This document shows positions 1 to 3,000 of a stretch of DNA of 4,397 nt, in pieces (the stretch's first letter is position 1; every line of letters begins with the position of its first letter). The DNA is from a virus (taxonomy: Duplodnaviria; Heunggongvirae; Uroviricota; Caudoviricetes): IMG/VR virus record IMGVR_UViG_2778261570_000021, positions 1 through 4,397 of that record. One strand, written 5' to 3'. Made by a program: the position numbers.

Positions 1-3000
1 CCGGAAAAATGATCACGCTGGATAATCCACCAATCCCGGGGAAACAATCGCTGGCAAAGAGGACGTCAATTCCTCTGGTAAGTCAGGTTGAGTTTTCGAC
101 ATCATCATGGCGACGGGCGGTTCTGTCTCTTGAAGAACACCATAAAGCCTGGTTGCTGTGGTGTTACAGTGGCAGCATTTGCTGGGAACATCAGATTGCG
201 ATAACTCAGTGGGCGTGGAATGAATTTAACGCGCAATCTGGTACCAGAAAAATTGCGGAGAAAACACGGGAACGCCTGAAAAAATTAATCTGGCTGGCGG
301 TGCAGGATGTGAAGAGCGAGCTGGCTGGGAGTGAGACTTATGAATATCAGGAACTGGCTGAATTGATGGGGGTTGCTAAATCCACATGGACAGAGACATA
401 CCGACCTCGCTGGGAGATTATGCGTGACTGTGTTACAGGCCTGGACAAAGATGCGCTTATATCGGCAATGCACTTACGTTCACAACAAAAGGTATCTAAT
501 ACCAGGTTAAATATTGCAAAACCGAACTGAAAAGTGTATTTTGCGCATAAATCTGATATTTTGCCGATTTTTTACGCGATGGCAAAGTAAGCAAATCCCG
601 CCGCCGAGCGGGTTTTTTGTTGGCTTAACAGGTTATAATGTATAGTGCGAAACTGCCTGTTCAGCAGAATCATTTTGTTTGTAGTGGAGTTCACAAGTCG
701 TCATTATCAGGCAAAGAGATTTATGGTATTAAAGTATCAGCCGTCTGTTCGTTCTGTTTTAATGTGTGATTTTCGGGGAATGGTTGTTCCGGAAATAGTC
801 AAGGTCAGGCCAGTGGTGGTCGTGTCCAGAAACAGGCACAACAATCAATTGGTAACAGTGGTACCAATAAGCACTACTGAACCGCTCCCTCGCAGAGATT
901 GCCATCATGAGTTATCAGAAAACCCCATACCTGGTAATGAGCATATTACTTGCTGGGTAAAATGTGACATGTTGATGACGGTTTCATTGAGCCGACTGGA
1001 TCGCATAAAAACCAGAACCTGGGAGGGACGAAATTATATTGTTCCTATGATTGCGGAAGATGAGTTTGAGAATATTAAACGGGCGGTATTGCACGGGATA
1101 GGGATGGCTTATCTGTATCGATAATCGTTTTCGATTATCGAATTCGATATGAATTTATATTGACACACATAGTGTGTTGGCTGATACTGTCGCTGTACCC
1201 TGATGGGACTTGTGAGACTTCCGAACAGGAAGCCAGGAGTAGCGATGAGGTGATGACAAGCCTGCTGCCCCTGTGTAAAAGGCACCTTAATGGTGCCTTT
1301 GTCGTTTTTATCAAAAGATCCCGCCACTGAGCGGGTTTTTTTGTGCCCTAAAAACGGCACAGGACGTTAAACGCGCTGGTGGTTGCGAATACGGGTCTTT
1401 CAGCTTGCTGGCTTTTTCGACAAGAGGTATTGGTATGTCACGTTAACCAGAAAAGGGAAAAGACATGCTAAAACAGCAGGATATGACTGAAACCGCCAGA
1501 GTGGTGTTTAATGAATTAAGCGTCACTGAACCGGCGACCGTCGGGGAAATTGCGCAGAATACTTACCTTTCACGTGAACGCTGCCAGTTAATACTGACCC
1601 AGCTTGTTATGGCGGGTCTGGCAGATTATCAGTTCGGTTGTTACAGACGCCTTCCGCAGTGAAGGCTTTTTTATTTGTGGTAATGGGCGGCTGGTGGGTG
1701 TTAGCGGCACCTGCCAGCCATCTGCTCATGCGTTGGGGTCACAAGCAAACCTCAGGCCCATCTGCTTTGCGCAAAAGCAGTATGAGCCTATCAGAGAAGT
1801 GCTTATTGATCTATGGCTAATACTGTAAAAATATCCAGTTGTGAGTTAATCAACGCTGATTGCCTGGAATTTATCCAGACCTTACCGGAAAACTCTGTCG
1901 ATCTGATAGTCACAGACCCGCCGTATTTTAAAGTGAAGCCCGAGGGCTGGGATAACCAGTGGAAGGGCGACGATGATTACCTGAAATGGCTGGATCAGTG
2001 TCTGGTGCAATTCTGGCGGGTACTGAAACCTGCCGGAAGTCTCTACCTGTTCTGTGGTCATCGCCTGGCATCTGATATCGAAATCATGATGCGTGAACGC
2101 TTTAATGTGCTGAACCACATTATCTGGGCGAAGCCGTCCGGACGCTGGAACGGATGCAACAAGGAAAGCCTGCGGGCGTATTTCCCGGCAACAGAACGCA
2201 TTCTGTTTGCAGAACATTATCAGGGGCCATACCAGCCCAAAAATGACGGCTATGCGGCAAAGGGGCGCGAGCTTAAACAGTGCGTCATGGCCCCGCTGAT
2301 TTCTTACTTTCGTGATGCGCGTGAATCACTGGGAATAACGTCAAAACAGATAGCGGAAGCCACCGGAAAGAAAAACATGGCTTCGCACTGGTTTGGTACC
2401 AGTCAGTGGCAATTACCGAACGAGGGTGATTACAACAAATTGCAGGCGTTGTTTGCGCGTGTTGCGGCAGAAAAACATCAGCGCGGGGAACTGGAAAAGC
2501 CACACCACCAGCTGGTCAGCACATACAGTGAACTGAACCGGCAATATGCCAGCCTGCTGGAAGAGTACAAATCTTTGCGGCGTTATTTTTCCGTATCGGC
2601 AGCCGTTCCTTATACGGATGTCTGGACGCATAAACCCGTGCAGTTTTATCCGGGCAAACATCCCTGTGAAAAACCGGCGGGTATGTTGCGGCAGATAATT
2701 GAGGCCAGCAGCCGTCCTGGTGATTTGGTTGCCGACTTTTTTATGGGGTCAGGCTCCACAGTAAAGGCTGCATTGTCGCTGGAGCGCCGTGCGATAGGTG
2801 TGGAGCTGGAGGCTGTACGGTTTAACCAGACAGTGAAAGAGATAAATGCGCTGGTGGTTAATCAGGCAGATAAGTGTTACCCGGAAAAATAACTAATTCC
2901 GATATGGTATACCTGATTATTGTTAGTTTGCTTATCTTTTAGTATCTTCCTGCTCAGCAGGATCCCCCTGCAACGACGATTGTATGATGAATACCTTTTA

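Follow-up and report, generated by a model that had tools for sequence, protein, structure and literature searches.

According to a published description of phage 82 (PMC5001585), transcription from the late promoter pR' pauses at +25, on U, in a region that has a -10-like element with an extended -10, GCC at +15 to +17 and an AT-rich stretch. In Shiga toxin (Stx) phages, the late promoter is constitutive and is terminated directly downstream in lysogens to give the short leader RNA StxS, and the toxin cargo lies behind this terminator, tR', with its high expression dependent on the antiterminator Q (PMC7547250). In this report, we analyse a 4,397-nucleotide (nt) stretch of viral DNA (positions 1 to 4,397 of IMG/VR record IMGVR_UViG_2778261570_000021; hereafter the window), which is the late-control and lysis region of a lambdoid Escherichia coli prophage with a Q gene of the phage 82/434 type. 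Within it, two near-identical terminators, T1 and T2, bracket a gene for a MazF-fold, toxin-like protein and a small structured RNA (Table 1). We think it probable, though well short of certain, that the late terminator has been duplicated around a cargo, and that this cargo, a MazF-fold toxin with a type III-like RNA partner, is wired into the Q-dependent late operon. The pR'/pause/tR' architecture, the terminator duplication around the cargo, the pairing of toxin and RNA and the structure of the RNA all emerge from the comparison of related loci.

The window resembles the late module of phages 82 and 434 in several respects. Its Q protein falls in the Pfam family of theirs and is 67% and 63% identical to the Q proteins of phages 82 and 434, respectively; the last Q codons contain a TTGCAA -35 element; and an extended -10-like pause element with GCC at +15 to +17 and U at +25 is followed, about 50 nt on, by a GC hairpin terminator of nearly the phage 434 sequence (CCCGCTGCCGAGTGGG). 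In contrast to that module, the window has this terminator twice, 723 bp apart and with cargo between the copies, an arrangement known here from sequence. The pR'-tR' region of the window resembles that of Stx phages in the toxin cargo behind tR', and its methylase, tRNA and holin region is homologous to that of the Stx2e phage phiP27; however, the cargo is an intracellular ribonuclease (RNase)-type toxin with an RNA partner rather than an exported cytotoxin, the Q family differs, and the terminator is duplicated around the cargo. Morons of lambdoid phages are autonomous units of promoter, gene and terminator that have entered between genes which are neighbours in relatives. As in these morons, the flanks of the cassette are adjacent in relatives, the cassette ends in its own terminator and belongs to the late region, and its GC content is below that of the window as a whole. 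Unlike these morons, it comprises a coding and a non-coding transcription unit, a terminator repeat of 26-27 bp flanks it, and the promoter of its protein gene is doubtful: the RNA gene has both a promoter and a terminator of its own, whereas the only promoter-like element of the toxin gene is a TATAAT lacking a -35 element. By comparison, the cassette appears to behave as a moron, at the same hot spot where Stx phages carry stx.

The pair of protein and RNA calls for comparison with type III toxin-antitoxin (TA) systems (ToxIN, CptIN and TenpIN), in which an endoribonuclease toxin has no protein antitoxin and is paired instead with a small structured noncoding RNA, and which also occur on phages and prophages. 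The fold of ToxN is like that of Kid and MazF. The antitoxins of the type III loci known so far consist of short repeats in tandem; the array stands upstream of the toxin gene, with a terminator between the two, and is processed by the toxin. In the window, by contrast, the RNA is a single copy of about 115 nt, lies downstream of the gene and has its own promoter and terminator, and the protein belongs to PF02452 rather than to ToxN/AbiQ; no tandem repeat array was seen by eye upstream of the gene (619-722), where no repeat finder was applied. The regulatory frame is the known phage 82-type Q/pR'/tR' system, and the RNA partner is apparently undescribed.

The MazF-fold gene and its putative RNA partner

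The gene between the terminators, already taken as toxin-like in the first-pass annotation, is a solitary YifN-type gene whose 133-amino-acid product matches PF02452 and has a MazF fold: its AlphaFold model has a predicted local distance difference test (pLDDT) score of 89.8, and the top PDB matches found by Foldseek are MazF structures (probability 1.0, template modelling score 0.66-0.82). In the family profile alignment, the invariant E24 and R29 and the near-invariant T52 fall on E24, R29 and T52 of E. coli MazF. The likeness to the type II systems MazEF and PemIK (Kis-Kid) lies in this fold and these positions; in contrast, identity to solved MazF structures is only 15-18%, the protein has a C-terminal helix extension, and there is no mazE- or pemI-like gene. 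More generally, no protein antitoxin gene stands alongside the toxin gene in the contexts examined, and no neighbouring open reading frame (ORF) is common to phage and chromosomal contexts. Homologues are annotated as 'YifN (PemK superfamily)' or 'type II toxin', and the protein has no PADLOC or NCBIfam match.

Downstream of the gene lies the RNA, which is composed of helices H1 (CCC/GGG), H2 and H3, the last with the conserved loop GAUGACAAGC, and of a terminator hairpin (1278-1300) followed by UUUGUCGUUUUU. The conserved unpaired motifs are CUUGUGAGACU, the H3 loop sequence and UUUGUC 3' of the terminator hairpin, and the window copy folds with a minimum free energy of -43 kcal/mol (z = -4.65). 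The promoter of the RNA has counterparts at homologous loci (TTGACT-17-AATACT in Enterobacter and TTGACA-17-GATAAT in Xenorhabdus), and a -10-like hexamer stands 6-7 nt ahead of the RNA 5' end in the family sequences inspected; the RNA is therefore best regarded as an independent transcription unit. The -35 element and spacer of this promoter are also covered by an ACACAC/GTGTGT inverted repeat (TTGACACACATAGTGTGTTGG, 1160-1180), the left arm of which is gone in toxin-less variants.

The small RNA that the first-pass annotation offered as a candidate has been considerably strengthened by a covariance model (R1, built from 20 sequences), by covariation and by its conservation after the toxin gene. 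An R1 element was found on the toxin strand, a median of 65 nt past the stop codon, in 74 of 80 species-level (GTDB-species) loci; at one of the six others the contig ends too early, so that the toxin gene lacks a detected RNA in at most five of about 79 judgeable loci. Homologues of the RNA were recognized by eye in Enterobacter, Xenorhabdus, more than 40 Pseudomonas species, Caulobacteraceae, Vogesella, Oxalobacteraceae and an Anaerolineales metagenome-assembled genome (MAG), and through the covariance model in Neisseria, Pasteurellaceae, Geobacteraceae and a Lloydbacteria MAG (a candidate phyla radiation (CPR) bacterium), and the toxins of these distant hosts have only 43-55% identity to that of the window. 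In an alignment of 80 RNA sequences, standard pairs fill 96.5% of cells, against 80% in shuffled alignments and 41-61% with the partners slid; compensatory changes occur at 17 of the 24 pairs, every pair of H2 and H3 covaries, and double-change cells number 249 (shuffles, 52±7). Fitting the alignment to the covariance model favours the structure, but the margin is large and an analysis with MAFFT and RNAalifold agrees. At E<=1, neither the window nor any of seven diverse loci matched an Rfam family, and our search of the literature found nothing on the pair of a YifN-type toxin and an RNA, on the RNA itself or on YifN function. Together, the distribution and the covariation point to toxin and RNA being an ancient conserved pair.

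Two ideas on how the RNA might work were set aside. A CUUGU-ACAAG pseudoknot was considered, and both of its sides are near-invariant, but the variants CUUGA and CUUGG (L121, L123 and L171) are uncompensated. Antisense, type I-like control of the toxin 5' untranslated region (UTR) was rejected as a general mechanism, as there is no enrichment of complementarity across the family: over 64 loci, the longest complement between an RNA loop and the 5' UTR averages 5.9 nt against 5.8 nt in coding-region controls, the duplex-energy z-score of the RNA against the toxin 5' UTR has a median of -0.43, and complements of 9-10 nt between loop and 5' UTR appear only in a few loci (L086 and L096). The pair thus falls outside the described classes, outside type I because there is no antisense complementarity, outside type II because there is no protein antitoxin and outside the architecture of type III because the RNA is not an upstream repeat array; by analogy, it would work most like a type III system.

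The toxin gene recurs just behind late regulators of different kinds: Q82 in the window, the lambda-type Q (PF03589) in Enterobacter, the Q21 type (PF06530) in Xenorhabdus and Mor in a Mu-like phage. Where the regulator is a Q (three contexts), a terminator-like hairpin comes after Q, then the toxin gene and then the lysis genes; a promoter-like site precedes this hairpin at the Enterobacter locus, and no such site was found before the hairpin at the Xenorhabdus locus. The RNA, for its part, occurs without the toxin in three E. coli contexts. At one of them (E. coli E9, L176, 2415-2650, and two other strains), a lambda-type pR' (TTGATT...GGTAAATT...AACGATGGG) is fused to the RNA, which lacks its own promoter and is followed by T2, so that the RNA terminator and T2 would serve as tR' for a different Q family. 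At another (E. coli A34, L177, 1450-3274), an RNA copy of 80% identity (82.8 bits) has a Panacea-domain gene on one side and a ParDE pair on the other, within a TA-rich prophage region. The E9 and A34 copies score 81-83 bits with R1, and tblastn detected no toxin remnant beside them. RNA-only loci are expected if the RNA is harmless or protective alone, and the pattern as it appears from these comparisons, with RNA-only remnants tolerated and toxin-only loci not, is the one that a TA pair predicts.

Such RNA-only copies also speak for a different view, that the RNA is not an antitoxin at all and acts instead as a regulatory small RNA, as a 3' stabiliser or processing element, or as a cofactor or guide in a non-toxic ribonucleoprotein with the MazF-fold protein. 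We regard this as the most serious rival and yet as doubtful. It gains from the three contexts in which the RNA stands intact alone, including the one directly behind a lambda-type pR' in E9, from an architecture unlike that of every known RNA-antitoxin class and from the lack of a published function for YifN-type proteins, but it has to contend with the tight co-occurrence of toxin and RNA across phyla, the rarity of toxin-only loci and the want of any protein partner for a protein that conserves the MazF catalytic residues. The invariant H3 loop also contains ACA, the cleavage motif of E. coli MazF, which again favours an RNA that serves as the partner of a toxin.

The late control region and the repeated terminator

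The predicted pR' overlaps the 3' end of the Q gene and has A549 as its inferred start. The sequence ATTGCAAAA at the end of the Q gene is common to the window, phage 82 and phage 434; the Q genes of the two phages finish in ...ATTGCAAAACTGGATTAA, and in phage 434 the promoter reads TTGCAA, 17 nt, TATACT and is followed about 50 nt on by AAACCCGCTGCCGAGTGGGTTTTTTTT, a hairpin annotated as a terminator in the phage 434 record. An alternative assignment, in which pR' was the TATAAT at 634-639 and T1 ended the Q transcript, was dropped, as the comparisons with phages 434 and 82 place pR' upstream of T1. Behind the predicted start, the extended -10-like element TGaTATTTT (554-562, +6 to +14) is followed by GCC (563-565, +15 to +17) and by a T-rich run that ends at T573 (+25), in agreement with the published account of 82pR'. 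For comparison, we assembled 80 IMG/VR contigs encoding close relatives of the window Q (Q82-type loci). Most of them keep the pR' layout and 77 carry the pause motif; in the 69 with a match to the search pattern, a GC hairpin terminator lies 42-48 nt past the start of the pause motif, and in 65 of these 69 the distance is 43-44 nt.

T1 begins 49 nt downstream of pR' and is the homologue of the hairpin annotated as a terminator in phage 434. Because pR', the pause motif and the near-fixed terminator distance match the phage 82/434 layout, we assign T1 as the probable equivalent of tR'/t82, a terminator under the control of Q, with the promoter, pause and terminator activities themselves predicted from sequence and homology. 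The leader RNA of pR' would then be a constitutive transcript from 549 to about 613-618 (about 65-70 nt), ended by T1 unless Q is loaded, as described for Stx phages. Since T1 would be the Q-controlled tR', the cassette would lie inside an antitermination-dependent late operon, and the earlier proposal that it is transcriptionally insulated unless RNA polymerase is made terminator-resistant is supported and can be made more specific by the phage 82-type pR' upstream.

The first-pass annotation had called the hairpins at 597-618 and 1320-1342 near-identical, and a terminator scan and quantitative comparison bear this out. The repeat units are ATCCCGCCGCCGAGCGGGTTTTTTGT for T1 and ATCCCGCCACTGAGCGGGTTTTTTTGT for T2, which differ at two loop positions and by one additional T; T1 reads ATCCCGCC-GCC-GAGCGGGTTTTTT-GT and T2 reads ATCCCGCC-ACT-GAGCGGGTTTTTTT-GT. 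In an ungapped comparison anchored at the T-run, 23 of 28 positions are identical, whereas comparison of T1 and T2 with 23 unrelated terminators from other loci gives a mean of 12.5-12.7 and a maximum of 16-19 matches, and comparison with the window's other four terminators, as found by a stem-plus-T-run script, gives 10-13. The likeness reaches into the flanks and includes four of the six loop bases.

It had further been proposed that related prophages might carry a single copy of the terminator with nothing in between, and at least seven contigs do so (L011, L013, L014, L017, L018, L020 and L081). In these, the left flank of T1 is joined straight to the right flank of T2: GATGGCAAAGTAAGCAA on the left leads into a lone terminator, such as CCCGCCGCTGAGCGGGTTTTTTT, and this into ATGCCTGAAAAACGGCACAGGACGTTAAACGCGCTGGTGG..., which is the sequence found 3' of T2 in the window and precedes the 65-amino-acid ORF and the methylase gene. 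The ancestral flanks are thus divided between the copies, the left one lying beside T1 and the right one beside T2, and the commonest single-copy variant of the terminator is CCCGCCGCTGAGCGGG, from which T1 and T2 are each one loop base away. Because the single-terminator relatives join these two flanks, the approximately 700 bp between T1 and T2 can be read as inserted cargo, flanked by a 26-27-bp direct repeat of the resident terminator. Two terminators around the same cargo were found in only one of the 80 Q82-type loci (L010). Among E. coli genomes, the module has about 37 carriers; one of them is SE11, whose RNA lies at 1768956-1769081 of NC_011415. The interval, which had been described as AT-rich, has 43.1% GC (619-1319) against 49.5% for the whole window; this description is weakly true, and there is no sharp compositional island at the cargo, because the adjacent stretch from pR' to T1 has 41.9%.

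The first-pass annotation had read this arrangement as a moron inserted by recombination at a terminator, or as a duplicated terminator. The part that stands is the cargo flanked by a duplicated terminator; a role for the terminators in moving the cassette does not, since the same toxin-RNA pair occurs with unrelated, non-duplicated terminators in Enterobacter and Xenorhabdus prophages and on chromosomes, an observation that the first-pass annotation had itself named as a refutation. T2 is furthermore a general mosaic boundary, at which homology to phiP27 and to Stx2 phages with other Q modules starts (at 1320 or 1331), and it joins the conserved downstream flank without a gap, as in the single-terminator relatives.

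The order of terminator, module and terminator fits a Campbell-type integration of a circle with one terminator copy, and it also fits recombination within the module between phages that carried the module on opposite sides of tR'. In the latter case, there would have been no insertion or duplication in place, and T1 and T2 would be the orthologous terminators of two parents. This origin seems to us unlikely as a whole, even though E. coli E9 has one of the layouts that it calls for (pR'-RNA-T2-downstream) and Enterobacter the other (tR'-toxin-RNA), many phages have a mosaic boundary at T2, and T1 and T2 are each a single base off the commonest single-copy variant, for the E9 layout is most simply derived from the window type, with T2 and the RNA 99% identical, and no parent was seen with a Q82-type T1 directly before the module and without T2.

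A narrower insertion has also to be weighed, in which the toxin gene alone entered a pre-existing T1-RNA-T2 unit and the RNA is a resident phage RNA unrelated to the toxin. The empty site would be the form found in eight E. coli genomes (for example LZSFT34, L001), which keep T1, the TATAAT stretch, the RNA and T2 but lack about 497 bp, the two sides being joined cleanly at CAT, a microhomology of 3 bp. We consider this improbable. The missing segment takes out the -35 element of the RNA promoter (1160-1165), as a deletion would; the junction is identical in all eight genomes, whereas the toxin-bearing form is both commoner (about 24 genomes) and more diverse (96.7-99.4% identity); and the same order of toxin and RNA, together with the RNA-promoter -35, is present in Enterobacter and Xenorhabdus, the RNA following the toxin in 74 of the 80 species-level loci. 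Because the -35 is lost, the adjacency of toxin and RNA is ancient and the toxin-bearing form is commoner and more diverse, we judge the L001 form to be a derivative by deletion of the toxin gene, and not an empty site. Finally, the notion that the two hairpins are independent, and alike because CCCGC/GCGGG stems and T-runs are common, is highly improbable: such a stem does recur among the terminators of Q82-type loci, and many contigs have one, CCCGCTTTTGCGGG, at a distance of about 690 nt past tR', but the T1/T2 match extends over flanks and loop and lies far above a background of about 12, and comparison with single-copy relatives shows that T1 and T2 each bear one conserved flank of the same ancestral site. 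We therefore retain the duplicated resident terminator around an inserted toxin-RNA cargo as the preferred reading.

Other cargoes may use the same position. In phiP27 (L002, 1200-2523), a 1.2-kb GIY-YIG nuclease gene is located between a short Q-like gene and a T2-equivalent terminator (ACCCGCCGCCTGGCGGGTTTTTT), and is another cargo that finishes at this terminator with the same downstream flank. A second GC-stem terminator is present 690-1276 nt (mostly 690-860) downstream of tR' in 24 of the 80 Q82-type contigs, including L010 and also L009, L025, L029 and L030, with the sequence CCCGCTTTTGCGGGTTTTT or CCGCC...GGCGGTTTTTTTT. L010 aside, these second terminators are not near-copies of the first, which suggests a different cargo in the same slot in about 20 other Q82-type contigs. 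In addition, about 40 nt past the terminator (ATGCCYGAAAAACGGCACAGGACGTTAAACGCGCTGGTGG) are kept in Q82-type loci with differing downstream genes (L006, L016, L075 and L010); the corresponding segment of the window (1343-1385) holds a small TGCC/GGCA hairpin and may be part of the Q82 control module.

Proposed mechanism and its implications

We infer promoter and terminator activity, toxicity, an antitoxin role of the RNA and an origin of the duplication, and our data suggest a model whereby the cargo is held under Q. Transcripts from pR' would pause at about +25 (554-573), the presumed site of Q loading; in a lysogen without Q they would be halted at T1 (from +49), and Q-less transcripts entering or leaving the module would be stopped by T1 and T2. 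After induction, Q-modified polymerase would pass T1, the cargo, the RNA terminator and T2 and continue into the methylase, tRNA and lysis genes. The toxin gene would be at most weakly transcribed in the lysogen, from the TATAAT without a -35 element, while the RNA, transcribed from its own promoter, would keep the antidote in excess. The RNA would be the partner of the toxin, most likely an antitoxin that binds the protein or is cut by it, in a type III-like manner, and its invariant ACA-containing H3 loop may act as a pseudo-substrate. Antitermination by Q, or the loss of a labile RNA upon transcription shut-off, would shift the balance to toxin activity.

Several points weigh against this model. 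Toxicity, binding between RNA and protein, and the activities of pR', T1 and T2 are predictions from sequence comparison, and the likeness to 82pR' relies on a published verbal description and on phage 434, not on the pR' DNA of phage 82. The RNA is a single copy downstream of the toxin gene, unlike the tandem upstream repeats of known type III systems; its conserved motifs do not show the covariation that would define tertiary contacts; and the toxin's own promoter is weak or uncertain. The route to the terminator-module-terminator order is compatible with both circle integration and recombination within the module, and the slot behind tR' may be a mere permissive hot spot for morons, without functional meaning.

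A bolder reading, which we put forward as speculation with the odds against it, is that the YifN-type MazF-fold protein and the RNA of about 115 nt constitute an undescribed, widespread TA class with a late-phase role behind tR'. Here a single-copy RNA with a transcription unit of its own would neutralise an RNase toxin, in an architecture different from those of types I and III, and prophages of all three Q families would repeatedly have placed the pair directly behind tR'. If antitermination by Q then surged, whether because the prophage itself was induced or because a superinfecting phage supplied a matching Q, toxin mRNA would outrun the RNA antidote, with late-phase host shut-off or abortive infection as the outcome.

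If the model of a duplicated terminator around a Q-controlled toxin-RNA cargo holds, the window would provide a natural example of cargo entry at the most tightly controlled spot of lambdoid phages, where Shiga toxin genes sit, with the empty, filled and partly deleted states all at hand for comparison and with the terminator copied on both sides and the regulatory logic kept. It would also assign a partner to a large family of 'orphan' MazF/PemK-like proteins, which annotation pipelines call type II in spite of the missing antitoxin. This would widen the known ways of neutralising MazF-fold RNases and suggest a candidate prophage defence or host shut-off function. Taken by itself, the duplicated terminator is a finding of modest interest; it is the uncatalogued RNA partner of the 'orphan' family that merits follow-up, and the RNA, with invariant single-stranded motifs, including the ACA loop, beside covarying helices, is a target for structural and biochemical work.

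Gene content and minor features of the window

The features of the window are collected in Table 1. The Q gene, of which the window holds the 3' portion, is full-length in L003 (230 amino acids). Beyond the tabulated genes, the window encodes two holins and the start of a GH108 endolysin, and from 1320 on it has about 93% identity to the late region of the Stx2e phage phiP27 and 85-89% to many Stx2 phages.

Table 1. Features located in the 4,397-nt window, with the basis of each assignment
Feature	Position	Strand	Basis
3' portion of Q82-family late antiterminator gene	1-530	+	PF06323, E=1e-67, profile positions 54-217; 5' end outside window
Late promoter pR', phage-82 type (predicted)	514-542	+	-35 TTGCAA 514-519, 17-nt spacer, -10 TATTTT 537-542
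Sigma70-dependent pause/Q-loading region (predicted)	554-573	+	Match to published 82pR' description
T1, putative tR'/t82-equivalent intrinsic terminator, left repeat copy	595-620	+	Terminator scan; stem 597-612, T-run 613-618
TATAAT without good -35, possible weak toxin-gene promoter	634-639	+	Read from sequence; not called by promoter scan
Segment of ~497 bp (toxin gene and RNA-promoter -35) missing in toxin-less relatives	671/674 to 1167/1170		Alignment with L001
Solitary YifN-type MazF/PemK-fold gene, 133 amino acids, putative endoribonuclease toxin	723-1124	+	PF02452, E=5.6e-14
Perfect 10-bp AT-rich hairpin over toxin stop codon, not a terminator	1118-1141	+	Read from sequence
RNA promoter	1160-1188	+	Promoter scan; TTGACA, 17 nt, GATACT; 10/12 consensus matches
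Structured small RNA, ~115 nt	~1195-1309	+	Covariance model R1, 90.9 bits
T2, right copy of tR'-type terminator	1318-1344	+	Terminator scan; stem 1320-1335, T-run 1336-1342
Conserved post-terminator segment (GTGCCCTAAAAACGGCACAGGACGTTAAACGCGCTGGTGG)	1343-1385	+	Directly 3' of single terminator in Q82-type relatives
ORF of 65 amino acids	1465-1662		Weak sub-threshold Pfam match to TrmB helix-turn-helix family
N6/N4 DNA methylase gene	1813-2892		
tRNA-Arg(tct)	3079-3155		

The hairpin over the toxin stop codon has the loop TTTT in the window and AAAA, with the same arms, in strain VTB97432v (L003, 4559-4582), and this swap is a signature of loop inversion by template switching inside a palindrome; in the Enterobacter homologue, this position is taken by a different hairpin. 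The terminator scan found 17 terminator-like hairpins in the window against 4.5 expected, a density typical of Q-dependent late operons. Four strong terminator-like sites lie between the methylase gene and the first holin gene (3016-3037, 3327-3345, 3354-3375 and 3466-3481), three of them crowded into 3327-3481. In phiP27, the stx2e genes sit between the tRNAs and the holin, and the window is on this basis a stx-less relative of the phiP27 late region.

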